64,000 nucleotides of DNA from Pseudogymnoascus verrucosus (lineage: Eukaryota): assembly GCA_001662655.1 (NCBI GenBank), contig KV460216.1; one strand, written 5' to 3'. A model generated the notes under the pieces. The model had not been told where the DNA came from. It did not search any database and saw only the letters and a program-made list of their open reading frames with translations. Positions 38,735 to 62,524 of the stretch are shown one piece after another. Every line of letters begins with the position of its first letter. The first letter of the stretch is position 1. The position numbers and the translations under genes were made by a program.

Positions 38735-41333
38735 ATGAGGGCAGCACGAGCAGCAGGGACAGCGGCGGCGGCTGGCGCAGCGGCGCGCCAGAGGATGGCA
38801 CAGAGCGCGCCGACGGCGGGCAGGTTCCGGTGTCTGTTTGCGAGGGAGAGCGCGACGGTTAGGGTGGGTGGATTGAGGGCTGGAGCTGTGGAGATGCAGA
38901 GGAGGGCATTTTCGGGCTCGAGGGGATTGAGGAATGAGGAGGCTGCGTAAGTTTTTCTGGGGGTTGTTTCTCACTTCCAGTGCAGGGGAAACTTCAGGGG
39001 ATGTCTAGGGAAGGGGGGGCGTCGCATTAGCTTTGGAGGGATGTCACGATTGAATGAGTCGCGCTGACCGCAATCTTTACTACAGAGCCAAGCCCGAAGT
39101 AGTTGTGCTGGGCCCCAGCCTCGAACAGATCCAGATCGACATGTCGCCCTCGGAGAAAGGACGACTCTCGAAACTCCGCAACATCGGTATCGCAGCACAC
39201 ATCGACTCCGGTAAGACGACTTGCACGGAGCGCGTGCTCTTCTACACCGGCCGCATCAATGCTATCCACGAAGTTCGCGGCAAGGATGCCGTCGGCGCGA
39301 AGATGGACAGCATGGACCTCGAGCGCGAGAAGGGAATTACCATCCAGTCCGCGGCGACGTTCTGTGACTGGAAGAAGAAGAATGTCGATGGCGTGGAGGA
39401 GATGTTCCATTTCAACTTGATTGATACACCCGGCCATATCGATTTCACGATTGAGGTAGAGAGAGCGCTGCGTGTGCTCGATGGTGCCGTGATGGTGCTG
39501 TGCGCAGTCAGTGGCGTGCAGAGCCAGACGATCACGGTGGATAGGCAGATGAAGAGGTACAATGTGCCGCGTATCTCGTTTGTGAACAAGATGGACAGAA
39601 TGGGAGCGAATCCGTTCAAGGCCGTGGACCAGATCAACCACAAGCTGAAGCTGAACGCTGCGGCGATCCAGGTGCCCATTGGCGGGGAGGACAGCTTCAA
39701 GGGTGTTGTCGATCTGCTCCGCATGAAGGCTATCTACTTTGAGGGCGAGCAGGGTACTACGCTTAGAGAGACTGATGAGATCCCACCGGATGTGCTGCCG
39801 ATTGCGCAGGAGCGCAAGAGAATGCTCATTGAGGCTGTGGCAGATGTGGACGATGAGATTGCGGAGCTCTTCTTGGATGAGAAGGAACCTACGACTGCTC
39901 AGCTCAAGGCGGCTATCCGTAGGACTACGATCGCGCTCAAGTTCACGCCTGTGATGATGGGTAGTGCGCTCGCAAACAAGGGCTTGCAGCCGGTTCTCGA
40001 TGCTGTCTGTGACTACCTCCCAGACCCATCTGAGGTGCCTAACCTGGCTCTCGACCAGCGCAAGGCCGAGGCTCCAGTCGCGCTTGTTCCATACAATACC
40101 CTACCCTTCGTCGGGTTGGCGTTCAAGCTTGAAGAGTCCAATTTTGGCCAGCTCACGTATATCCGTGTCTACCAGGGTACTCTCAAGAAGGCCATGAACG
40201 TCTTCAATGCGCGCACCGACAAGAAGGTCAAGATCCCACGTATCGTGCGTATGCATTCCAACGAGATGGAAGAAGTTCCCGAAGTCGGCGCTGGCGAGAT
40301 CTGCGCCGTGTTCGGCGTCGACTGCGCGTCCGGCGACACCTTCACCGACGGAACCCTCCCCTACTCGATGTCGTCTATGTTCGTGCCCGAGCCTGTCATC
40401 TCGCTCTCCATCACCCCCAAGAACAAGACGGACACCAACAACTTCTCCAAGGCCATGAACCGCTTCCAGCGCGAGGACCCCACCTTCCGCGTTCACGTCG
40501 ACAGTGATTCCCACGAGAACATCATCTCCGGTATGGGCGAGCTGCATCTCGAGGTCTACGTTGAGCGCATGCGCCGCGAGTACCGCGTCGACTGCGTAAC
40601 AGGCCAGCCTCGCGTCGCTTACCGCGAGACCGTCACCAAGCACGTCGAGTTTGACCACACCCACAAGAAGCAGACTGGTGGTGCCGGAGATTACGCTCGT
40701 GTCGTCGGTTACATCGAGCCAACCGGCAGCCTGACCTCGAACAAGTTCGAGCAGCAGGTCACTGGTGGTTCTATTGACGAGAAGTTCCTGTTCGCTTGCG
40801 ACAAGGGTTTCCAGGCCGCGTGCGAGAAGGGACCTATGCTTCAGCAAAAGGTCTTGGGTACCAGTATGGTCATCAACGACGGTGCAACGCACATGACTGA
40901 TTCCAGTGAAATGGCGTTCAAGGTCGCGACACAGCAAGCCTTCCGCAAGGCCTTCCTCCAGGCCGGCCCCGTCGTGCTCGAGCCGCTCATGAAGACCACC
41001 ATCACCTCGCCGAACGAGTTCCAGGGTAACATCGTCGGGCTGCTGAATAAGCGCAATGCTGTTATTCTCGATACCGAGATTGGGCCGGAGGACTTCACGC
41101 TCACGGCTGACTGCAGTTTGAATGCTATGTTTGGCTTTTCGAGCCAGCTGCGCGCGGCTACGCAGGGTAAGGGGGAGTTCGGGATGGAGTTCTCGCATTA
41201 TGCGCCTGCGCCGATGCAGATCCAGTAAGTTTGCCCTCCGTGTGGTATTTTGATGTGGATGTGTGCTGATTACTTTTCTAGGAAGGAGCTCATCGCCAAG
41301 CACGAGAAGATGCTGGCGGAGAAGCGCAAGTAG
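38735..41333 (+). CDS. MEF1: Mitochondrial elongation factor G1
   Basis: Arg/Ala-rich presequence; [42 protein letters not shown]; introns 38947-39085 and 41225-41281. Confidence 0.96.
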
Positions 41334-44866: not shown

Positions 44867-46969
44867 ATGGAATCAAGCGAAAGGCTGGCAAGCTTCCCTC
44901 CAAAGGCATATGGCAAATTGCAGACACCTCACAAGTTCTTCAAAGTAGGAAGGGTCTTCCAAAGTGACGACGAATTGATTTACGTTGTAGCCCGCGAAGG
45001 ATATAGCTCTTCGACTTGCTGTGAGCTACAATATGTAGGACAAAGCAGCAACATCGACTGCAGTTTGCCAAACATTGCCGCCCTTTGTCTTCTAGACTGT
45101 CCAATTAAGAGCCCTAGCGACAACCAATATCAACTTATATTAGAATGCCCCCGCGACGAGGTTTTGCCGATATATCACTTTGACTGTTCGAAATGGCTTG
45201 TACTCAACCACCAAATCGAAGTTTACAAAATTGGCCGGGTTGATAGAAAGTCCATCAAGAGGCTAGAGGCGATGTTTGCAGCTTTCAGCACTCCTTCTGA
45301 GACCATTACTAGCACTACGGTGGGGAGCACTGAGCTGAAGAGCACTAGGATGGAGAGAACTGAAATAGAGATAACTGAGATGAAGAGAACTGAGATGGAG
45401 AGAAATGAGGTGAAGAGAACCGAGATGGAGAGCACCGCGATGGAGAGAACGGAGATGGAGAAACCTGGAGTGGAGAGCACCGAGATTGAGGCATCTACTT
45501 TAAAAGCGGCTGCATTATTCTCTGCAGCATCATATGCCAACAAAACTAGCAGCCCTGCAGAAACCAGCTACGATATGACAAGTATCAGCAAGCGCCGCTC
45601 GAACAACACTGTTTCAACTGATTGGAGTGGTTGGGAATATAATAAGGATATGGGGTATGTCGCCTCTAGAATTAACAAATCTGGAAGTACGAACAGCTCA
45701 CCAACTCTTAATGCAATATATTTGAGTAGGTGCTAACTCCTACTAGAAGAGGATCCTCAATATTCTGGTATAAGTTCACCGCCTCGCATGCAGACGCCAC
45801 CGATGGAAAGCCTATGGAAAGATCTCCGTGTCGCTCTCCCACTCTATGAGAATAAGGTGAAAGGAGAAGAAGAAATATCTCAAGAGGAAGGTATCAAGTT
45901 AGCCCCGGGCTCCCACACAGAGGTATCCCAAGACCACACACCTTCTTACAACAGCTACATGGCACAGTATGCAGACCTAGCTTTCTCGCATACTCCAAAA
46001 CCATCAATTAGTGCGCATAAATACCAAGAACAAATAGCTACAGGTCCTCAAATACAGATAAATGCACTCCCGCGCCTAAAATTGTGGGAAGGTACTAAAA
46101 TCTAAGATCAAATTCTAGAATAAGATACTGAGCAACTGACATTAACAGAATTCAAAGTACACCACTCTAAGCACTTCAAACCAGGTTATGCAAGAGTTCC
46201 CTTCCTCTTTGTACTCCATATGCTAATACATTGGCTGTAGGTCTTTAAAATTGTGTGGTCTGAGCCTGAAGGAGAAACGATATCTCGTCAGAGGGAATTA
46301 ATTAGCGGTTACTCGCGAATGGCAGAATCAAAATATGGCGAGTTGGTTTATACGTCAATTCGCCGGTTCATTATTATGGCTTCGTATGAGGGCCACAGCA
46401 TCTGCTTGTAAGTCGGTCCCTTAATAATATACCTTTAGAATATAGGATTCTCATACCTAACTAGACCAATTTACACCTATGGAGGCCGGGGCACAGCGAA
46501 GTCTGGTGTTGTACCAGATCATCATGCCATAATATATTCCATGCGCCGGAGAACTTCGGATCGCGACCCCCCGAGAAAAAGCAATGGGGAGCAAGAGTTA
46601 GTGAATGCACCAATACGAATTGAACCGAAATCCCCGAGGGACGTTCTACATGAAATGTCGAGGCTTAATTATGCAAAGGCCTATACGGTAGAGCATAATG
46701 TGAAGGTGGCCTTCATTGGTCGTGTTCACGAAGACTCTAAACTCACATTACAAAAAGATTATCTTAAGATTCAGGGGACTCCCTTCAGTGATAATACGAG
46801 CGAGCCTAGTGGATCCAATTTAGATCCCAATGATGGAGATAATGAAGCCTTAAACGGCGATGATGGAACGGTATCGGATATCGACGTAGCGCGCGCCAAT
46901 GGAGCTCGAAGTGAATCAAACGAGGAAGTTCCGGAGCCGGAGCTGCAGCCGGAGCCGCAACCGTGGTGA
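44867..46969 (+). CDS. Protein with two DUF6590-like domains (N-terminal copy degenerate) and a pentapeptide-repeat linker
   Basis: FFKVGRVF...HQIEVYKIGRVDRKSIKRL, and FKPGYVFKIVWSEP...IRRFII..GHSICLPIYTYGGRG...SRLNYAKAYTVEHNVKVAFIGRV. Four introns; start uncertain. Confidence 0.75.
45321..45490 (+). repeat. 15-bp coding minisatellite (MERTE-like pentapeptide, about 11 units)
   Basis: STELK STRME RTEIE ITEMK RTEME RNEVK RTEME STAME RTEME KPGVE STEIE. Confidence 0.8.
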
Positions 46970-47151: not shown

Positions 47152-48797
47152 CTAACTCTCGTCCACAACTGTGGCTGTTCCTGAAGAGTTACCGCTATTC
47201 GCGGAGTACGCCCGAATCGCCTCCAAGACAGGTCGTCTCGTCGCAGGTGTATCAAACACCTGCGCGTGATCTAGATCGTCGAACCAGAGGATATCAATCC
47301 CCTTCCCTCGCCAAGGTCTATGTTTCCACCCTTCATGTAACAGCAAGCCCCCCTCCTCGCTCACATCGGGCATTATCTCCACATCTCTCTCGTCATCCGC
47401 GTCTTCGCTTCCCTCTGCCAAATATCGGCCCACAGCCTCGGTATTAACAATCAAATCTCTCCCTGCCAAACTGACCGTAACATCACGGCCCTCTAAAGCC
47501 TCCTTCCACAGCACATTCTCCGACCAGAAGAAGTGTCGCGCCAAACTGTGCGCAACTCCCATATCCATGCTGGCAAAGTACCACAGCTGGTGCTGACTCG
47601 CTGACTGCGGCTGACGCCGCGTGAAATTGTATGCCACGTCAGGTAGGTGCAATAAGATGGTCACAGGGTCGATAAGAACCATATCCGCGATCATCGGCGC
47701 CGTTTCGGCGTGCGCGAGGAGATGGGTCGCAATCACAGAGCCGTAACTGTGTGTGGCAAGCACGACCTGGGAGTAGCCGTGCTGGTTGAGGATTGAGGCG
47801 ATCTCAGCGCATAGCACGGCAGGGGATAGTGGGGCGTGGGTCAGACGGAAGGAGACGGGGTGTATTTCGAGGGCAATGATGCCAATTTGGCCGCCTGAAC
47901 CATCTCCGGCGGGAAGGTCCTTGGCCGAGTTGATGTCGGAGAGGAAGGGGACGTAGGGGTAGAGTCCGATACCGATACCGTGAATGAAGAGAACTGGGAG
48001 GTGCGTGGTCGACGTGTGGGGACGGTGCCAGTAGGTTGTGTATTTCGCGGGTGACCGCTTGGTGGTCAGAACAGCTTGTGGGCGGAATGGGAACAGTGTG
48101 AAGAATCGGGAGAGCGAGGTGCGGTGGAAATGGAACCCGGCGCGGAGGAGGTTGATGTAGGTGAGCAAGTCGACAAAGCCCACGCACTGGGACAAATTAG
48201 CTTCGTGATAATGGAAACAGTGGGACCTATACATACCATATACCAAGCCAAACTACGATGTAGCATGTCTATTGGATCGAGTGTCAGGCGAAGACTCTCA
48301 GCCTTGCCCCTCCCTGGCTCGAACTTTCTCCCCACCAGGGTCTCGTATGCAGCCACATACTCGTGCAACTCCTCCTCATCATCTCCAGCCTCTCCACCGC
48401 GGTTGAAAAACGCCCATTGTATAAACTCTTTCACATTATCATGCTTTATCTCCTCCTGCGGGGCACCCAGGAACCACCGATCAAGGTAGGTGTCTGGATC
48501 TGGGATGAACTTGTAACACTTTTCGAATAGCGCCTTTCGTTCTGCTCGAGAGGGGACGGGCGGGTGAACGGCTGCACGCTGGAGATATGCGCTGTATGGG
48601 AGGAAGACGACGAGGTAGAATAGCGACTCGGCGACAGCGATAACGTTGATCGCAAGTGGGGTGTGAGGGCGTGGTATTCCAAAGATGTAACTGGCGATGA
48701 GGAATACCGTATAGATGATGCTGGCTGGTGTGAGATAGTGTAAGAAGACGATGCAGGTGCGGATGAAGATGTATTCGAGGCGGGAGTCGTTTATCAT
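47152..48797 (-). CDS. Membrane-anchored alpha/beta hydrolase
   Basis: N-terminal TM segments; intron 48187-48236; FIHGIGIG, THSYGS, LIDPV, GRDLIV, LDHAQVF. Confidence 0.88.
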
Positions 48798-49667
48798 GAC
48801 TGCTGGTGTAGTGGGTTGTAGGATCTTGTGAGGGTCCTTCTTTTCAAGGTCTCAGGATCAAGCGGTTATGATCGTGATTCCGTCGTCGCCATGAGGTTTC
48901 CGGCTGAGGTTTATCGAGTCGAAATGTTATAGGAGTAATGGCCATAAAATATATGTCCTCCATCACAAAGTTCGAGCAGGTACGTCAGCCTTTGGTGGGA
49001 TTATAGTGTGTTGAGACACTTGAGGTCTCACGGAAGGCACGTATGGCATGTGAAAGAAGAAGCGTTGGGATGCTACCCTGGTAGATTTATTCAACGAATC
49101 ACGTGCCCGACTACTAAATATGGAAATTTTCTATCGGAGGCTCTAATCTTGGTGCTTTTGTTGTCAACACTGTCGATTTTGATGTTCGGCAGTACTGGAC
49201 TCCTAAGACCCTTGCTCTGTCTTTCCGCCCCTCATGCTTAATTAACGTGGCATGGCTCTTGACACCCTCAAAACTCCACTCGCTTCCTATTGCCCTCTGA
49301 TAGCCTTGCCAGCCACTGTCAATCTCTAAACTCTATCTTGGATATCTATGCATACTCCCATATCTCACATATCTGGAGACCGTTATGCACTGGAGAAATC
49401 ATAGTTATCATGGGGTGGTGGCCTGAGCAAGGCAGATCATCCCTTCCGAGTTAGCTTCACTTGTAGAATATCTCGAAGGTGAAACACGGTTCGGATCGCA
49501 TTGACCAAAATAACTTAAATCAGACCTCAAGAATTCCTCCAAACGCGTGAATTGTGTCCACGCGCAGACTAGATCTGTAATGAAACACGATAACAGGAGT
49601 CCCCTCTCGTATATAAAAGAGAATAATTCCGTCAAACTCATTATGCGTCATCTTGAGTCTTGAACTC

Positions 49668-52328
49668 TTATTCGGCAGCCGCAACTGGTTCGTCAACAGA
49701 CTCCATAAAGATATCAAACCCAATATGCCCTTTCGGATCCAAGTATCGGACCGCGCCCGTAGATTTGACAATTTTATTGATCTTCGTCATATCTTCGTCG
49801 GCGAGGCGAGAGAGTGCTCGGTTCTCTACCATTCTGTCCTCTTGAGCTGTTATGGGAACAACAGACACACCACGCTGGAGCGCCCAGGAAAGGAGGACTT
49901 GGGCAGGTGATTTGCCAATCGATTTTGCAATTTCAGCAATCGTTGAGAGGGTTAGCTGGTAAAATTATCAAAGGTAGCGGAGCTTATTGTGGGGTCCAAG
50001 AGAGGACCGGGGCGGTCTGAATTTGGGCCGACCGGGGCGACTGGGCGGCCTCCGAGGGGCTGGTGAGCGGTGACGTGGATCCCCTCGGCAAAGCAGAAAT
50101 CCAGAAGCTCCTGTTGAGGGAAATATCTAACAACGTATTTAGAGAAATCCCCCGAGTATGGCACAAATTAGGGGTTGCATACTTACGGGTGTATTTCTAC
50201 CTGGTTTACGGCAGGTCGGATCCGTGCAATTTCAAGGATTCGCTTTGTCTTGAGGATGCTGAAGTTTGAGACGCCTAGTTTCAAGAATTAATAAAGCTTG
50301 TGATGTGATATCGCGGGGAAGAGGTTGTCCTACCTATCAGTCTCGTCTTGCCACTATCCACCAACTTCTCCATTGCTTGCCAAGTTTGCGGGTATGCTCG
50401 CGACAGCTCGAGGTCGATTACTGGCTTTGTATCTTGTTAACACACGCAGTATTTAGATTGGGTATTTTAGTGCCCTACTTTTCCATTGGGATGGCGGACT
50501 GTACTGTGATTTGGACCTGCGGTATATGCATGGGGGACTGACGTGTTTGTTAATTTATCATCTGAAGCAATATTAAATGGGAAAACCCACAATGCATCAA
50601 ATGTAAATCCACTGAAACATTCGGGGTATTCGTTAGCTATCGTTGAGTTTCTGTTGTCGGAAAGATTGCTTGTGCTTACCATAATCGAGTTGCAGGGTCT
50701 TCAAACTTTGGTCGAGTGCTTCTTCCACATCTGAAGGGTTATGCCACGTCTGAGCTCTGAGAGACCCATCAATATAAGATGACTTTGGAAGCCATTGCTG
50801 GGAAGGAGTAGATATCTTACAATTTAGTGGTGACAAAAATCTCTTTCCGAGGAATACCGCTTTCCTTGATGGCTTCGCCGACTTCTTTCTCGTTCCCATA
50901 GGCCAAGGCAGTGTCGATGTGTCTGTAGCCCGCCCGTAAAGCATTTAGCACAGCTTTCTTGACTTGGCCATTTCCGTCGCCGCCCTGGAACGTGCCAAAG
51001 CCTACTGCTGGGATAGATATATCGTTCACATCAAATGAAGTAGAGAGAGCTTGAGCTGTTGACGCAGCTGAGATGCCCTCCACTTCCTCGTAGCCATTTG
51101 GATATTTTGCAATTAACCTCTTCATTTCATCTATAACCCTTAGTCATAATCAGTTACTAATACAATAGGCAGATAGATAGGATGCATCACAACTCTCTAT
51201 AGCTCAACTCTCCCGGAAATAGAGCTGCAGCATGCAGATTGAAGCGTATTGAATACAGGGCATTTCGGTCATCAAAATCATCCACGGGCTCTGACTTCTT
51301 CATGTTCAATTCGTATGCAAGGAAATAGCTTCTGTCAAATTTATTCCGCCCTGGTCGCCAATTTCCAAGCTCGTCTAGAATTTGTTAACAATACTAACTG
51401 GAGACGCGGAGAGATCTTTCCTCACATTCATTGTGCGCGTAAAAGCTAGAGGGGTCATATACCAATGGACAACCAGTTTCGGAATCTACGGCAGCATTTC
51501 CATACCATAAATCGCCGTGGACTAGACACGGCTTGATAAATCGCCCGTTGGACTCCATAGGCCGGAGAAGTCTTGGAATGACTTTATCTATCACAGCTGA
51601 TTTGAGTTTTTCCATTTCCTCCCATGGTCCCCCACGGTCTATGTTCAAGGTTAACATATGCCTAAAGCCACTGACGAAACATTCTTCCCAAGTATCAGCA
51701 TACCCATTCTCCTGGGGAAGATTCCCATTGTATGTTATCACATGGAAGCCGAATTTTCCGTTTGGCGATTGGCTCTTGGAGTGCAGTTCGGCCACCTTTG
51801 CGCAAAACTCGAATTTCTCCGGGAGATCTGGTCTTAGTTTATAGAATTTGCAGATATAGTAGTGGGCGTTTTGTATTTCTTTGAACGAGCCCCATAGAAT
51901 TGGCTTGGGGATGAAATCGGGTACGACAGAATGGATTTTTGACGTAGATTCAAATTCTCCATACAATGCAGCCCTCCCTTGCTCGCCAATTGATACCTAT
52001 TGTCATGTTAATATAGCAATGTAAAATGTATGTCTTAATGCTAAGTTTATCGCAAGATTTTGGGGTTCTTCGAAGGTTGATTTACCTTCATGAAATAGCT
52101 CTCATCTTCCCCAGCGTCATTCTTGCTGTCAACCCTATAAGCCGAAGCCCAGAGCGAAGAGCCAAGGCTACTGACGCCTAGCGGCCGCTGAAATAGTGGT
52201 ATCTCTGATTGAAAAGCATAAGTAAATGATCTCAGATATGCTACGGATAAGTTGTGCAAACCAGAAACCACGTCAATGTTTATCGTGGGACTGTTTTCTT
52301 GCATGTTCAATCTTGACGTTGATTCCAT
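49668..52328 (-). CDS. Fusion of fructosamine/ribulosamine-3-kinase (FN3K family) and aldo-keto reductase
   Basis: Kinase: [82 protein letters not shown]. One exon (50821-51138) encodes both the kinase C-terminal helix and the AKR start. The last junction (49941-49987) is non-canonical. Confidence 0.8.
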
Positions 52329-53158
52329 GCTTTGTGACAAACTAATTATATTGTTCCAGGTGTCTCGATGTTTGAATATATCATGAGTCGAACTCTATTC
52401 AGCGGATTTACTTCAACTTATGCGGAGTTTCGGTTTCGGTGTTGGAATCTATTTGGCCTCCCCCCCCACACTATGTAGTATGCTGCGGCGTAACTAACCA
52501 ACCTCGGCACCTACCCATCTGTTGTAGGCACGGATACTGTTGAATAAATATATCGAACCGAAATAACCTTTCCAAATGTAACTAAATTTTACACAGTCTA
52601 GAATTGCCTTTAGCCGAACATTCAGAGGAATACTGACACTATTTGTCCATAGTTCCCACCACAGGTAACCGCTTCGACATAATAGCGTATTAGCCGCCGA
52701 AGTAAACCCTCAACTGAGTCTGTGCATGATGGATGTTTCAAGTTGGCGGATAATTTATAATCCATTTGACGATTGCTCGCCTGGTTGGCGGTTGAACGAC
52801 ATGTTATCCACTTTCCTGCATAGCCATGCATTCGGCATGCAGGCTTGACAATGTACTGCACTGGAATCGCACACCTACAGCCAACAGATGGAGCGCAGAC
52901 GTGGCAGACAGATCCTACATGAGGTCCTGAAATCGTATTTTTAGTATATCTGTTGATAGGCTGCGAGGCTCGGCAACTTGAATGAGTGACCGTCAGATAC
53001 AAATTCATTTTCTCTGTCGTAATGTCCCAATCCCACGTTAACGTGCCCTCTCATTTATTACCTCAATACCTCCTGTCAGGTATATGGGATTCTTCCGCCG
53101 CTAAACCACTGTTCGGGACAGAGGACGGAGCCCCATTTGCGCCGTAACTCAGGCCATC

Positions 53159-56100
53159 ATGGATCGCGTAAGTCAAATATATGCCTTAATTATTATTACG
53201 CAGAGCCTTACCAGATATTAGTTTAGAAGGCATCCGGCGGTGGCGGCATCCCCAGCAAAAAACCCTGACCACATAGGACGATCAGTAATAGGAGCTTTGC
53301 AGAGAATTGGCCTTTCTCATAAAACAAGATCCAAAATAGAAGAAGCTTTAGATACCCCACAAGATATCAAAGGGCCGCTCGGACTTAATCTCATCCATGA
53401 CGTCCCAAAGCCTCTAATAGACTTTATTTTTGTCCATGGTCTCGGTGGCGGCTCTCGGAAAACATGGTCTATGTCACCCGATCCAATGCATTACTGGCCA
53501 AAGGAATGGTTGCCACTAGATCCTAATTTTCGCCATGTACGCATACACAGCTTTGGCTACAAGGCAGATTGGGATGAGAGGAAAGAGAGCACACTGACAG
53601 TCCATGACTTTGCCCGATCTTTGCTAGGCGAGGTTAAATGCAGCCCTGATATCCGTGGAAATAAGGTATGCCCGGAGCAAGCATTGCCGTGGTTATGATC
53701 TGATTATCCAATAGACGAAAATTGTCTTCGTTGCACATAGCATGGGTGGAATTGTCATAAAAAAGGTACGCCTTTCATGCTGCTATAGGAAGTGGCCTAC
53801 TGATTGAAAATGGCCCAGGCTTATCTACTTGCTCGAGAAGACCCGCAGTTACGAGACTTGACTCGTCGTATCCACAGTCTTTATTTTTTGGCGACACCCC
53901 ATCGAGGTTCTCACTTAGCAAAGACATTGTCAAACATCCTCCAAATATCCATTGGACCAGTTTCCTATGGCGCAAAGCCCTTTGTTGCAGAATTAAACCG
54001 CACTTCCGAAACGATCATTTCTATCAATGACAGTTTCCGACATTTCGCAGAAGATCTTCAACTCTGGTCGTTCTACGAAACAATCCCGAGCACAATCATA
54101 GGCGTAGATACAATGATTGTCGACAAATCATCGGCCACCCTTGGCTATGCAAAGGAACATTCATCACTTTTAAATGCTAATCATCGTGGTGTGTGTAAGT
54201 TTGATTTAAAGACCGATCCAAATTATCAGACACTTCGCAGGTCTTTCATTACCACAATAGACTTGATTTTATTAGAAGGTAATGTAAACCTACATGACAA
54301 ATAAGGAACGGGGACACTTCTAATATTTCCCAGCTTCTCAGGCTTCGTCTGACGTCTTAGAACTGCAGCGACAGCAGCTCATAAAATTCACGGGGGTGGC
54401 TGAGCCACCCATTGGGGATCTATCAACTCTAGAAAATATACGAGTTGCCGGTTCTGGCGGGTGGCTATTGTCCAATGAAGTCTATATCTCCTGGAGGGGA
54501 GATGAGGACGCCAAGCGACGCATTTTTTGTCTTTCTGGAAAGCCAGGTTCGGGTAAGTCTGTTTTGTCCAGCCAAGTAATCACCGATCTTCGAGACCGCG
54601 AATTGAAATGCTGCTTTTATTTCTTCAGGCGTGGCAATGCTACAAAATCAACAATTTCCGGATGTCTACGATCTTTAGCTTATCAAATGGCAAACAATGA
54701 CAATACGATACTGAAGAGATTATGCGAATTTAAGCAAGAATCTACTTCGTGGGAACAGTGGGATGAAAGGACGATTTGGCAAAAGTTGTTTCTTGGGTGC
54801 ATATTCAAAGATCACAGCTCAAATATTCACTTCTGGGTAATCGATGCTCTAGATGAGTGCCGTTTTCTTCCACTCATTCTCTCTTTATTCGCCGAAATCC
54901 CTCAACACTTAAGGATATTCATAACCTCGGGCAAGTCTCCTGAGCTCGACAACTGCTTGGCCAACATCACGCATTTTACTGAGCACTACCAAGTTAAAGC
55001 TGTTGATACACTTAAAGACCTAGAAATCTTTATTGATTCAAAAATACATCTTCTTCCTGCTAGCGACGAGAATGGGCAGCGGCTTTTGAAGCAGCGAATA
55101 CTTGCCAAAGCATCTGGATCGTTTCTATGGGTTTCTTTGGTAGTGAAAGAGCTACAGCAGGCATATTCAGAGGAAAGCGCCGAGGATATTCTGAGCGATT
55201 TGTCGACAGATATGAACGAATTCTACGCTGGGATGCTAGAAACCGTTTCCGCTAAAGGCCTTCGCACTACGACACTTGCAAAGGCCGTCTTTATGTGGGC
55301 TTTATTGTCATCTCGCCCATTGAAAGTTGATGAGCTACAACTTGTGATTAAGCTGGATATAAACCAGACTGTTCACAATCTTAGAAAATTCATTTCTGCA
55401 ATATGTGGCCAGCTGTTATCCGTCAATCAAAAAGATGAGGTTGAAGCTATTCATCAAACCGCCAAGTCATTTTTGTTACAACAGCATAATTTGCCTAACC
55501 TTAAGCTAGAGCAAATAAGTAGCCATACTCGAATAGCCCAGATATGCCTTCAAATCTTAACAGAAGACATGCAGCAATGGCAGACGAAAGGAGGCCTAAA
55601 AGATGTCACAAGGGCACAATTCCTAGAATACGCTTGCGAGTATTTCTCAGATCATATCAATGGATGTTCATCACAGGATCCAACCATATGGGATGCCCTT
55701 TTGAAGTTCTTAGACAACAATCTTCTTTTATGGATAGAACATCTCGCAGAAAAGAGAAAGTTGGGCCATATTACGCAAACTGCACATAATCTGCAAGCAT
55801 ACTTGCAGCGCCGCATCAAATGTCTGCCACCACTATCTCCACCCACGGAAAGACTCGAAGTCTGGATAACAGATCTAATTAGACTCAGCGCAAAATTCGG
55901 TCCAAATATTGATATTTCACCATCGTCAATACGTGACATAATCCCACAAATGTGCCCAGTGGAGTCTCTCATTTCGAAGACTTACAGATCTACTCAACCT
56001 GGATTATGCATAAAGGGGGAATTAGACGATATTTGGGATGATTGCTTGGTTAGAATCCACTACCCGACTCATACAACCACCGCAGTCGCCTATGGAAAGC

Positions 56101-58127
56101 ACTATATAGCGGTGTCAGCATCGGATGGCACTATATTCCTCTATGATAAGGAGTCAAACTACGAAAAATACATGGTAGACCATGGCGAAAGGCCAAAGGC
56201 TATTATTTTTAGCAGCAAGGACGAATACATGGCTTCGAGCGGTCTACGAAAAGTGAAGGTCTGGGACACGGCAGAGAAGACCCAAGTTTGGAGTTTTGAT
56301 ACGGACCACGAAGCCCTAACTCTTCTTTTTATTGACGACAATGCTACTTTAATTGCCGCCACTAAAGGCAACTACATAATCACCTGGGGATTACTTGATG
56401 GGACCGAAATAGAGCGCTGGCAATGGACGGACAGCATACACAGTACAGCTCCCTTTCCAAATCCATGTCAGGTACCAAGAAAGGCATTATTCTCTCCGGA
56501 TTCTACAACCTTGATTGTGAACTATCGTGGCCTTCCGTTGTATCTTTTTGCTCCGAGAACAAGGAAGTTTATTGGCTGTTGCAGCAGAGAAGATATCAAA
56601 CTTTTAGATAGCCCTAAAAGTTTCGCGGATTACAGCGTTGTCGATGCACTTGCCTTCAATCCAAATCCAGAAATCAACAATTTAGTTGTGTCATATGGAT
56701 TTGGGGAGATTGCAGTTTACGATTTGCATTCAGCTGACCTCTGCTTTCAAATTCCAGAAGTGTATGCTCACTACCTCGCATGCTCACCTAACGGTCGCAC
56801 ACTCGTTACTGGGAGCGCCTGTGGCACAATTAAAATATTTGAAATTTCGGGCACTAGAGGAGAGACCCTTACATCTATATACAAGATTTGTCCTCATGAA
56901 GAGGGTATCCAAGGGATTGTATTCAGCAGCGACGGCCTCGGTTTTGCTGACATCCTTCGTTCTCAGCTTCGTATCTGGAAGCCAGCTGTGCTTTCCTCCA
57001 GTAATATGAATGAAAGTGGTCAAAGCGAATTTAGTCAAGCAAGTACGCTAGAGCCACTAACTGTCACCATGCCTAAGCATACGCTTGAAGCAGAAGTCAC
57101 GGCGATGTGCTTTCACCCAGATGGGGATTTTGTCTTCTGTGGAAAGCAAAACGGGGTCATTGCCTATTTTAAGACAGCTACTGCTACTCAGCGTGGGATT
57201 CTATATTGTCATTCAGCAAACGTCAGAATAGTTTGCATCGCCTACATTAAGGAGAATTCTCTTCTTATTACTGGGGATGAAGCTGGCCGTGTGCTTCTAA
57301 CAAACATCGATGTTTCACAGCTTGAGTGCAAAACAGGCTCTGAAATCGCGGAGATACGTTTAAAAACTCCGCCGCTAGCTATACTCGTGGCACAATCTGG
57401 TTCTAGGATACTCTTCAGAAGTAGGATTTCGGCGGAGGTATGGACCACAAAAGCCGAGAAAGTAGGTGCTACAATACATCACGAGAGTGACGACAAGATG
57501 AACATTGTGAATCATCCTGTCCTAACAGGGAATTTTATCGTTATTGACCACAAAAGCATGCGAATTTATTCATGGGCCGATTCGCTACAAGCAAAACTAT
57601 CCACCGACGAGACAGCACAAGCATTAAACTTCAATGTCACTCGTTTTTCTCAGCCTTTCCAACACCCAATCCAAGATTGGCAAAATGAACAAAAGTACCA
57701 GCAGTCTTCTCGATTCATCGCACATCTCTTCAATGGAAGCGCCCATTCTACTTCTTATTCCGACTGCACCTCACTACAAGTATGGCCAGCCAACAACATC
57801 TCCGTTTTTGATTCGTTCCCGTCGCCTATTTCTATCCCGGGGTTCGATAAGAACTCGAATAAAATCTTGCAGATTATCAGCGTCGCTGGGAATCTGATAT
57901 TATTCCTTGACAAAGATTTTTGGGTTTGCAGCCTTGACATGTCGAGAATCACGACAAATGGACATGGCGTGAAGAGGCACTTTTTCTTGCTTTCGGAGTG
58001 GCAGAGAAATTATGAGGGGTTTATCATTGAATATCTTCCTTCGAGATACCAGTTTGTAGTGGCAGTGAATGGCGGTATAGTTATCATAAGTAAGGGATTG
58101 GAACTTGAGGCGCCTTGGTTCTCATAA
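53159..58127 (+). CDS. Fungal NLR: SesB-like alpha/beta-hydrolase + NACHT + WD40
   Basis: FVHGLGG, AHSMGG, ATPHRGS, NHRGVCKF; Walker A GKPGSGKS, Walker B VIDALDEC, SGSFLWV; WD-like C-terminal repeats; four 5' introns. Confidence 0.9.
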
Positions 58128-60366: not shown

Positions 60367-61914
60367 TCAAACTGGAGTCATGTTCAAGTCGGATCGCCCG
60401 ATGGTTCCAATGTCCACACACCGCTCCAGAACTGATTCCCTTATTCTTTCATCGGAAATCCCCATATGCTGCGGAAACCACTCCTTAATACTCTCCTCCT
60501 GTCCGAGTATCATCATTGCCAATGCCTTACCACACAGCCAGGCATTCACCATTCCCTCCCCCGAATACCCCACGCTCACCCATTCCGCTCCCTGTCCCGA
60601 CCCCCTCCCAGTCAAAGACCCAGGCAGCTTTCCAACCCAAGGAAGCATGTCGACACTAAACCCCATATTCCCCGTCCACATGCTCTTCACCTTAAACCCA
60701 TCCCCCCCGACATTCTCAAACGCCTTCCCAAGGCCTTGCCTCAAATGCTCGGCAGCATTCTCATTTAACTCCGCATCGCTCGCGACACCCATCTCCACCA
60801 GGCCACTAAACCCTGCTTGCACAAATCCACCTCCGAACATCATCTCCCCTCCATCGTCCCATTCGCCCGCTTTAGTTTCTCTCTTCGGCAACTGTGTCAA
60901 GTAATCAAACCCAACATCATACTCAAAGCTCCACGACCTCTTTTCTCCCTGATGCGAAAATCCCTTTGGAGGGACCTGCGCCGACATCTGCCCGCGCAGC
61001 GGATAAACTCTCCCCCTAAATCCCGGAACAAGATGGCCAATATGGGCATTACTTGCGTGAATGACGTGCTTTGCTCTGATTTCACCCCTCGGCGTCGATA
61101 CAATGAAAAACCCATCCTCAGACACCGAAATACTCGTCGCAGGGGTATGTGCACAAACATGGAAGCCCTCATCATCACGCTTCAGGTTAGCCAGCACACC
61201 AGATACAAAACGATACGGCCACATAGCTCCGGCTTTCCCCTTGATAATGCCATATGCCCCCGGTACCCCCATTGACTGCATCTCTTCGGGCCCCTCAGTG
61301 GTCTTGCAAGCATCCACTTCGCCTCCAAAGTCCTCCTTAAACCCTTTAACTGCCGCTTTGCCCCTTTCCCATCCTTTCTCCCCAAAGAACACACAGGTAG
61401 ACTCCACAACTCTCATCCCACACTCTTTGCCGAGTCCCTCCTCAGCAACAACACGCATGAACTCGTCCACGTGCGCCATCCGGAAGCGCGTGATCTTCTT
61501 CGCTTCCTCCCGCCCGTACCGCGTCACTAGATCCCCATACTCCTCCCATCCAACTTCATTCACGTGGCCTCCGTTACGGCCTGTGGCACCACTGCATATA
61601 TCGCGAGCGTCGAGAAGGACGATGGGATTTTGTTTCTTGTCTTGTTTCGATAGCGAGGCGCGGTGGGATCGGACTAGGTGCCGTGCGATGGAGGTACCGG
61701 TTATGCCAGAGCCGATGATGACAATTTCAGCATCTGGAGATGGGGGCAAGGGGGGTGTAGAGAAGGCCGGGTGAAGAGGTGAGAGCCAGAACGACGACGT
61801 TGCTGGGGGCGATGTGGTGGGGAGTCCGGGGTCAGAGAGGATTCGTGTTATGGCTTCTGACTTTGCGGTGGAGGGGATGCCAGGATAAGAGAGTAAGGGG
61901 AGTATAAACGACAT
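60367..61914 (-). CDS. FAD-dependent oxidoreductase (DAO family)
   Basis: IIGSGITG, CSGATGRNGGH, PLRGQMSAQ, WTGNMGFSVD, GYSGEGM. Confidence 0.9.
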   Translation of the reverse strand: MSFILPLLSYPGIPSTAKSEAITRILSDPGLPTTSPPATSSFWLSPLHPAFSTPPLPPSPDAEIVIIGSGITGTSIARHLVRSHRASLSKQDKKQNPIVLLDARDICSGATGRNGGHVNEVGWEEYGDLVTRYGREEAKKITRFRMAHVDEFMRVVAEEGLGKECGMRVVESTCVFFGEKGWERGKAAVKGFKEDFGGEVDACKTTEGPEEMQSMGVPGAYGIIKGKAGAMWPYRFVSGVLANLKRDDEGFHVCAHTPATSISVSEDGFFIVSTPRGEIRAKHVIHASNAHIGHLVPGFRGRVYPLRGQMSAQVPPKGFSHQGEKRSWSFEYDVGFDYLTQLPKRETKAGEWDDGGEMMFGGGFVQAGFSGLVEMGVASDAELNENAAEHLRQGLGKAFENVGGDGFKVKSMWTGNMGFSVDMLPWVGKLPGSLTGRGSGQGAEWVSVGYSGEGMVNAWLCGKALAMMILGQEESIKEWFPQHMGISDERIRESVLERCVDIGTIGRSDLNMTPV

Positions 61915-62524
61915 CGCACTCTAGGCAGTGGTTTGTAGTTGTTGTGTCGTGCTCGAGATGGAGATGTGGATATGAGGTGATGTGGGGTCTACTGGTGGAG
62001 ACAGCGGATAGAAGCGGGAGAGGCGTTTACTCTTTACAAAGTATATTATTGCTATCTCTCTATATTCAACAGGGAAAACCTTGTCACAAAGTCCAACGTA
62101 ACAGGATAAAATACCCGATTTGACGGAAAAGACAGATAGCAAACAAATGTGTCGAAGTAAGCGATTGGGCAATAAAAGTCCCTTCGAAATTACCCTGAGG
62201 CGTGGATCTATTGTGAGGAATTTTGCGTAGTACAAGTTCGTAACGGCACTGTAATTATCATAGTGCAGTCAATCGACACTGTTCTGCAAATTGGAATATG
62301 GCGTCCTAAAGATTACTTAGTAAATGTCGTAAATATATAGTTTTTTTTATTTACATAGAGCTCTAGAAGGTACATTAATATTTTGAAAGAGATAGAAATG
62401 TAAAAAAGGTTGCATCCAGCAGAGCTGGTAAAAGACCGGACGAAGTGAACTGGGAGCTAATTTTACTTACTGAATAGCTACTAATAACGTAGCGAGTAAA
62501 GTTGGAATCTATTACAAAATATTA

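Follow-up and report, generated by a model that had tools for sequence, protein, structure and literature searches.

In a 64,000-nucleotide stretch of the Pseudogymnoascus verrucosus genome (assembly GCA_001662655.1, contig KV460216.1; this whole stretch is called the window), one gene on the minus strand (52328-49668, ATG at 52328, TAA at 49670-49668) very probably encodes a true translational fusion, within a single open reading frame (ORF), of a fructosamine-3-kinase (FN3K) family kinase and an aldo-keto reductase. Orthologous kinases and reductases are encoded by neighbouring genes in other fungi, and this conserved gene pairing is a more solid and more useful result than the fusion itself. 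We consider it likely that the two enzymes act in one pathway. Deglycation of the FN3K type releases a reactive dicarbonyl, the fate of which was treated as a separate matter; a pair that is both fused and widely neighbouring would suggest that both steps are handled as a unit in evolution. The fungal FN3K-like clade would thereby gain its first functional hypothesis. According to a preliminary description of this DNA the fusion is not known to have been characterised, and our literature searches, which covered mainly listings and the beginnings of abstracts, likewise gave no paper on a kinase-reductase fusion or on any characterised member of the fungal FN3K-like clade. The two-domain architecture is already present in public protein databases, where the entries bear titles like 'hypothetical protein' and 'NADP-dependent oxidoreductase domain-containing protein'.

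Structure of the gene and its junction exon

The region 49000-53200 of the window was read, and its stop-to-stop frames were listed and assigned to the two families with Pfam. The gene model is based on tblastn of three database proteins (P0007, P0003 and P0006; database proteins carry P numbers throughout) against the window and on reading of splice sites. This homology-guided model has 12 exons and 2,007 coding bases, corresponding to 668 residues plus stop, and contains 10 GT..AG introns of 51-89 nucleotides (nt). The kinase profile Fructosamin_kin (PF03881) matches the exon ORF 51394-51996 with an E value of 9.6e-27 and 94.4 bits against a cut-off of 22.4, on exon 3 alone. The reductase profile Aldo_ket_red (PF00248) matches the junction ORF 50817-51143 (E 1.2e-11, profile positions 2-71), and its end is matched by ORF 49668-49964 (E 2.4e-07); the PF00248 pieces in the window cover profile positions 2-71, 117-141 and 224-290. 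A subfamily hidden Markov model (HMM) spans positions 2-327 of the spliced reductase unbroken, which presupposes removal of a 47-base stretch in front of the last exon.

The fusion point lies in exon 5. This exon (50821-51138) had been described as running from the terminal kinase helix over a linker into the reductase, with neither a stop nor a Met between helix and reductase domain. Both statements hold: the stop-to-stop ORF 50820-51143 (108 amino acids) leads from the kinase helix through the linker to the reductase start IPAVGFGT...TTKL with zero stops, and its sole Met sits within the helix (VIDEM), none following after it. The preliminary description had further suggested a search for proteins with both domains and had named absence of the fusion from all other genomes as a point that would speak against it. 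The full helix-linker-reductase junction recurs in P0001-P0006, six database proteins from Pseudogymnoascus, apart from small differences in length that keep the frame, and so exceeds chance. Their linkers vary by in-frame insertions and deletions (indels), that of P0006 being 2 residues shorter.

Retention of intron 4, directly upstream of the junction exon, produces TTG TGA and thus a stop at once. The slightly truncated kinase-only isoform that had been foreseen from such retention would be possible on paper only. Splicing of the intron is supported by the homology of VIDEMKRL to the C-terminal kinase helix of stand-alone kinases. An apparent frameshift at VDLHLMH / WVFPFN in the reductase, with VDLHLMH in one frame and PHAYTAG in another, disappears with a 53-base GT..AG intron, in front of which stands an exon of 21 bases. 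This micro-exon 7 (50611-50591) is flanked by GT..AG introns of 68 and 53 bases and is mis-handled by at least one database model (P0006).

Kinase and reductase are paired in other fungi

Kinase and reductase genes with consecutive locus tags were found in four other species of Pezizomycotina (Table 1). In four further species both proteins are encoded on contigs of equal size, which is weak evidence. The paired species belong to the Eurotiomycetes and Sordariomycetes, the fusion of Pseudogymnoascus to the Leotiomycetes. A same-strand arrangement of the pair is inferred from merged database models only.

A kinase tree was calculated with FastTree from 137 of 242 kinase-bearing rows, incomplete or split kinase matches being omitted. 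All 24 rows labelled as fused or adjacent to a reductase fall into one clade of 65 rows (Shimodaira-Hasegawa-like support 99), and none of the 72 rows outside this clade carries such a label. As neighbours were assessed for labelled rows only, the count of 24 among 65 is a minimum. The Pseudogymnoascus kinases are monophyletic (support 99). The reductase tree comprises 78 of 130 rows; here, too, the sequences from Pseudogymnoascus are monophyletic (support 99), and the closest row outside them is the Glonium reductase P0014. The Glonium kinase P0254 lies in the group adjoining the Pseudogymnoascus kinases. This matching placement in both trees fits a single, vertically inherited pair which was fused once in Pseudogymnoascus. 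An ancestral kinase-then-reductase gene pair would have been joined in this lineage by loss of the kinase stop, the spacer and the reductase start codon, giving one 668-residue protein with a short flexible linker. Its predicted product would combine a small-molecule kinase of the FN3K family with a complete (alpha/beta)8 aldo-keto reductase.

The tripeptide -SKL is the classical peroxisomal targeting signal. Two stand-alone kinases of Xylariales in the linked clade (P0318 and P0320) end in -SKL; the fused Pseudogymnoascus protein ends in EPVAAAE. Members of another fungal FN3K-like clade are often modelled as fused to a cytidine-deaminase-type domain (PF00383/PF18785), as in P0145, P0151, P0160, P0162, P0167, P0196, P0213 and P0217; these are candidate fusions from gene models. 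The kinase tree contains six of these deaminase-fused rows in a clade of 14 rows, where they all fall to the same side of a branch with support 100. In Thermothelomyces thermophilus, genes rising in conidiation are enriched in the Gene Ontology term 'protein-ribulosamine 3-kinase activity' according to PMC11708020, which suggests that the expanded fungal FN3K-like family is developmentally regulated.

The kinase half

The preliminary description had listed the catalytic motifs of both halves as present, and they were all located in the model. In the kinase these are Lys62 (FMKV), Asp224 and Trp226 (HGDLW) and Asp243 (YDP), equivalent to Lys41, Asp217, Trp219 and Asp234 of human FN3K. The available part of PMC11754801 reports that mutation of the ATP-binding Lys, the catalytic Asp, the family-specific Trp or the metal-binding Asp abolishes the activity of human FN3K. 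In an alignment of 18 fungal kinase sequences 45 columns are invariant, and the window kinase conforms in all of them. Searched with a profile of fungal relatives, the nearest solved kinases are human FN3K (E 5.9e-37) and Arabidopsis ribulosamine 3-kinase (1.1e-33).

Human FN3K (PDB 9cx8 and others), FN3KRP/KT3K and the Arabidopsis protein-ribulosamine 3-kinase (6oid) belong to the same PF03881 family as the window kinase. Lys62, Asp224, Trp226 and Asp243 are conserved in human FN3K and 6oid. Identity to the human and plant enzymes is at most about 30%, judged by eye from the printed alignment. The window kinase differs from these enzymes in three respects: an Ala in the column that the profile alignment places opposite human His288, a W-R-x-x-R motif and the fusion to a reductase, no solved enzyme being fused.

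The reductase half

The catalytic tetrad of the reductase consists of Asp389, Tyr394, Lys419 and His452, and 81 of the 82 invariant columns of an 18-sequence alignment of orthologous reductases are kept in the window. Mammalian AKR1A1 (PDB 2alr, 4gac, 3cv7), which has the fold of aldo-keto reductases dependent on reduced nicotinamide adenine dinucleotide phosphate (NADPH) and the same Asp-Tyr-Lys-His tetrad, is the top or near-top solved match (3e-66 with the orthologue P0008, 1.9e-59 with P0003). Compared with AKR1A1, the fungal subfamily contains HQPLGG and a conserved C-terminal extension of about 30 residues, RYLDPxxHxGFDIF, and the window copy carries Ile in place of a cofactor-binding Lys. 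Magnaporthe MGG_00097 (PDB 8yp9/8yp2, Gcy1-type) is the best solved match over the full reductase including the C-terminal extension. It differs in that it is a stand-alone protein, is assigned to glycerol metabolism and belongs to another branch than the kinase-linked subfamily. The extension, RYLDPxxHxGFDIFxExxDxP, is near-invariant in the kinase-linked reductases, occurs also in MGG_00097 and is of low AlphaFold confidence in P0003.

The last intron and possible decay of the gene in the window strain

Two features of the window copy weigh against an intact reductase half. The first is the exchange of Lys270 (numbering of alignment A2) for Ile608; the residue is Lys in 18 of 18 orthologues and in X1, a related strain. 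In the contact motif for the 2'-phosphate of NADPH, Lys-Ser/Thr-x-x-x-x-Arg...Asn, Arg and Asn are kept, so that the set of cofactor contacts is incomplete by this Lys, which belongs to the cofactor-binding PK(S/T). The homologous Lys271 of MGG_00097 is listed as an NADP-binding residue in the part of PMC11986364 that was available. The second feature is the 47-base stretch ATAAGC...GCTAACCCTCTCAACG between LLDPT (ending at 49988) and the start of exon 12 at 49940. Exon 12 is in frame only without these 47 bases, which have AT..CG ends, and reading through them leads to a stop after residue 589. Among canonical alternatives, 71 GT/GC-AG pairs leave a frame of more than 600 residues; none yields the homologous Thr/Ile junction. 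Moving both ends of the stretch by 1-3 bases did not produce GT..AG, and shifted boundaries were rejected as well. Nor does the 5' end resemble a U12 donor. Due to the Ile at the cofactor Lys and the non-canonical last intron, the reductase half in the window may work poorly.

For 49600-52400 no public RNA run is listed, and X1, the only run found to contain this DNA, aligned as contigs free of joints. X1 is a DNA-like assembly of about 96% identity to the window; compared over 2,644 bases, the two show 97 differences and 8 gaps (40 of 98 were listed one by one). Three indels set X1 apart from the window: two lie inside model introns and the third creates an in-frame alternative acceptor. In X1 the stretch begins with GTAAGC, its 3' end is non-AG as in the window, and the nearby CAG of the window reads CTG. 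The non-AG 3' end is therefore older than the split of the two strains. Window and X1 differ at 5 of the 47 bases and at 6 of 60 bases of intron 10 (about 10%), as compared to 27 of 500 (5.4%) in exons 10-12. With this neutral-rate divergence and a CTAAC 11 bases before its end, the stretch is intron-like. It could represent a non-canonical intron that is spliced at its ends, GT..CG in X1 and AT..CG in the window. Exon 12 shows 9 synonymous and 7 non-synonymous codon differences between window and X1 (omega 0.24; binomial p 0.0055 against neutrality). This purifying selection indicates that the frame was translated until very recently or still is, which implies some way of removing the 47 bases. 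There are two readings: splicing by way of the non-canonical ends, or a very recent defect in the form of the AT start in the window.

Accordingly one may ask whether the fusion is decaying in the window strain, with a working kinase and a reductase that is cut at residue 589 or crippled. Such decay would be compatible with either functional reading discussed below. It would account for the AT and CG ends where X1 begins with GT, for the lack of a canonical splice restoring the homologous junction and for an Ile that X1 does not share. Database models of the region are irregular too: P0001 and P0002, the closest annotated relatives, skip 20-40 residues at the last intron, and P0003 and P0004 read 16 extra residues through it, for which AlphaFold gives a predicted local distance difference test (pLDDT) below 50. 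The selection on exon 12 speaks against decay, as do the retention of all its invariant orthologue columns bar Lys270 and the 3' end in common with X1, which predates the strain split. On balance we regard decay as unlikely, yet as a serious contender. The window copy thus carries two possible defects, which is relevant to the choice of a gene for expression.

Proposed function

Removal of a ketosamine followed by reduction of a deoxyosone, as put forward in the preliminary description, is the most economical reading of the conserved kinase-reductase pair. In such a scheme the kinase would use adenosine triphosphate (ATP) to phosphorylate, in a free or protein-bound ketosamine (Amadori compound), the hydroxyl beside the carbonyl. 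The phosphate ester would decay spontaneously to the free amine, phosphate and a 2-oxoaldehyde (deoxyosone), and the reductase would convert this reactive aldehyde with NADPH to a harmless alcohol. Decay of these phosphate esters is spontaneous and takes minutes to hours; therefore, equal dosage and co-location are likelier reasons for the linkage than substrate channelling. Judged from the sequences, the chance that this is the actual pathway is nearly, if not quite, even. The wider proposal is more tentative: filamentous ascomycetes could possess a dedicated, co-inherited Amadori module in which an FN3K-like kinase is teamed with a deoxyosone reductase of its own, both being neighbours in at least two classes and welded together in Pseudogymnoascus. 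If true, this would be the first genomic (Rosetta-stone) evidence that kinase-type deglycation has 2-oxoaldehyde reduction as an obligatory second step which evolved along with it. The fungal FN3K-like clade would then function in repair or in nitrogen scavenging from glycated litter. Test systems are at hand in the Pseudogymnoascus fusion and in the split pairs of Aspergillus, Trichoderma and Xylariales.

Amadoriases are oxidases dependent on flavin adenine dinucleotide (FAD) that yield glucosone and hydrogen peroxide, and they are unrelated to the kinase-reductase proteins. These fructosyl amino acid oxidases are the known fungal route for removal of Amadori compounds, the same substrate class as proposed here (PMC11754801, available part). 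Reference titles in the same article name aldehyde reductase as a major 3-deoxyglucosone reductase.

Several observations weigh against the ketosamine and deoxyosone scheme. In human FN3K, His288 contacts the amine nitrogen of the ketosamine and the mutant H288F is much less active, according to the part of PMC11754801 available. In the fungal clade the column that would correspond is Ala in a profile alignment via the Arabidopsis enzyme (the alignment to the human chain ends earlier): the Asn-His of Arabidopsis aligns to Gln/His-Ala, the preceding column being Gln in most orthologues and His in the window. Moreover, W-R-x-x-R (mostly WRPxR) is invariant in the 18-row fungal alignment and stands in place of a segment of human and plant FN3K, so that the kinase substrate may differ. 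Concerning the reductase, the closest solved fungal enzyme, MGG_00097 (8yp9), matches P0003 with 2e-62, which is about equal to AKR1A1. With such similar scores homology does not pick the reductase substrate. Finally, the AlphaFold model of P0003 (mean pLDDT 76.5, predicted template modelling score 0.51) has a low-confidence linker; no fixed contact or packing between the halves is therefore predicted, and the model was not used as evidence of binding.

Gcy1-type glycerol dehydrogenases make dihydroxyacetone. By analogy, the enzymes might form a catabolic pair in reverse order: the reductase would convert a polyol or aldose and a ketose into each other, and the kinase would trap the ketose by phosphorylation of the hydroxyl beside its carbonyl, as a module for sugar or polyol utilisation rather than for repair. 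The best solved match of the Pseudogymnoascus reductase would suit this idea, since MGG_00097 is described in the available part of PMC11986364 as a fungal NADPH-dependent enzyme of glycerol and dihydroxyacetone. An absence of the amine-contacting His would suit it too, and the invariant Arg residues of W-R-x-x-R hint at a substrate of other shape or charge. Nevertheless, the seven solved FN3K-family matches are all called fructosamine or ribulosamine kinase, in part as putative, and none has a name that refers to a non-amine substrate. AKR1A1 is as near to the reductase as MGG_00097, and among the neighbours of the kinase-reductase gene in the window neither a sugar transporter nor a pathway gene was observed. 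We therefore consider a catabolic pair improbable.

Fusion in Pseudogymnoascus and probable merged neighbours in databases

Proteins with both domains are listed for many fungi. At least 11 were found among the 120 matches listed for the junction exon (longer proteins) and at least 19 among the 120 listed for the kinase exon, with a union of 20; two HMMs of our own recover the same 20 database proteins and the window model. At first this suggested multiple independent fusions across classes, an idea that was dropped once the junctions were read. In P0001-P0007 and the window, the kinase profile is kept to at least position 334 of 341 and the reductase profile starts at position 3 or before; six of these seven proteins are from Pseudogymnoascus. 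The seventh, P0007 from Acephala, falls within the same limits, yet has a 50-residue linker containing internal Met residues. Two further groups of models look different. Nine of the 20 database 'fusions' lose 14-41 profile positions of the reductase N-terminus (start at position 15-42); these trimmed models belong to Aspergillus, Bisporella, Hypoxylon and Hypomontagnella, and their late reductase start looks like the mark of neighbouring genes joined through a predicted intron. Two Daldinia models retain the reductase's own start MDLPDTF inside the 'linker'. The fusion is therefore secure in Pseudogymnoascus only, in the window also at the DNA level, and many database 'fusions' of both domains are probably merged neighbours, as appears to be true of most of those from other genera.

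That the window, too, holds two adjacent genes misread as one might be argued from these merged models and from the many species in which the kinase stands alone and ends in a stop, or the reductase stands alone and starts with a Met, but it is very improbable and is largely refuted already at the DNA level, given helix, linker and reductase start in one exon free of stops, the absence of Met at the usual start of stand-alone reductases (the nearest in-frame Met being within the kinase helix) and the junction in common with six other Pseudogymnoascus proteins.

Neighbouring genes

Coordinates of the gene, of further ORFs in the window and of the gene pairs in other species are compiled in Table 1.

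Table 1. Features of the kinase-reductase gene, other window ORFs and gene pairs in other fungi
Feature	Position or locus tags	Strand	Basis or remarks
Whole coding span	49668..52328	-	tblastn and splice-site reading
Exon 1, ATG 52328	52262..52328	-	relatives read SEIPLFQ over junction; model P0002 reads intron 1 through in frame
Intron 1, GTTTGC..CAG, 57 nt	52261-52205	-	splice-site reading
Exon 2, ends FMK; ATP-binding Lys62 at 52088-52086	52086..52204	-	
Intron 2, 89 nt	52085-51997	-	
Exon 3, kinase core; HGDLW Asp224 51513-51511, Trp226 51507-51505; YDP Asp243 51456-51454	51426..51996	-	PF03881 and alignment to human FN3K
Exon 4, kinase C-lobe; WRPGR motif 51360-51346; His-Ala 51234-51229	51191..51374	-	
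Intron 4, GTGATG..AAG, 52 nt	51139..51190	-	
Junction exon 5, comprising last kinase helix (51137-51087), linker (51086-51048) and N-terminal part of the reductase (Asp389, Tyr394, Lys419)	50821..51138	-	open frame, PF00248, junction also in P0001-P0006
Intron 5, with 2-base insertion in X1	50820-50757	-	
Exon 6	50680..50756	-	tblastn and splice-site reading
Micro-exon 7, 21 bases, VDLHLMH; catalytic His452 at 50594-50592	50591..50611	-	
Intron 7, GT..AG, 53 bases; X1 1-base deletion at 50578 inside	50590-50538	-	
Exon 8	50479..50537	-	tblastn and splice-site reading
Exon 9	50334..50424	-	tblastn and splice-site reading
Exon 10, GVSNF...NQVEIHP	50187..50274	-	tblastn and splice-site reading
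Exon 11, ends LLDPT at 49988	49988..50126	-	tblastn and splice-site reading
47-base stretch, ATAAGC...CAACG, CTAAC 11 bases from end	49941..49987	-	
Exon 12, last 91 reductase codons: PAQV, VVPITAQ (Ile608 49853-49851), C-terminal RYLDPxxHxGFDIF 49748-49707, TAA 49670-49668	49668..49940	-	
Elongation-factor-G-type GTPase ORF	39054-41225	+	
DUF6590 ORF	46439-46966	+	
Weak alpha/beta-hydrolase ORF	47155-48252	-	
Helicocarpus griseus pair	AJ79_00704/00705		consecutive locus tags
Aspergillus niger IFM63309 pair	IFM63309_001098/001097		consecutive locus tags
Annulohypoxylon sp. pair	ABKA04_008331/008332		consecutive locus tags
Cercophora sp. pair	OQA88_4559/4560		consecutive locus tags

No evident link of the GTPase, DUF6590 and hydrolase ORFs to the kinase-reductase gene was seen. 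An amadoriase as neighbour was considered for the ORF 60370-61920 on the minus strand (517 residues, FAD oxidoreductase PF01266), the only gene of the DAO family in the window, and was rejected. Its NCBIfam matches are far below cut-off (pipecolate oxidase with 63 bits as compared to 600), and it has no solved-structure match at E 1e-5, hence it is no close relative of the crystallised amadoriases.

The divergent neighbour of the kinase-reductase gene (53222-58124, plus strand) is a large ORF resembling NOD-like receptors, with NPHP3_N/NACHT, winged-helix and WD40-repeat domains. In Cercophora, NPHP3_N and winged-helix domains are attached to the orthologous kinase in the gene model P0132, beside the reductase gene, which may be due to chance or to a mis-merge.

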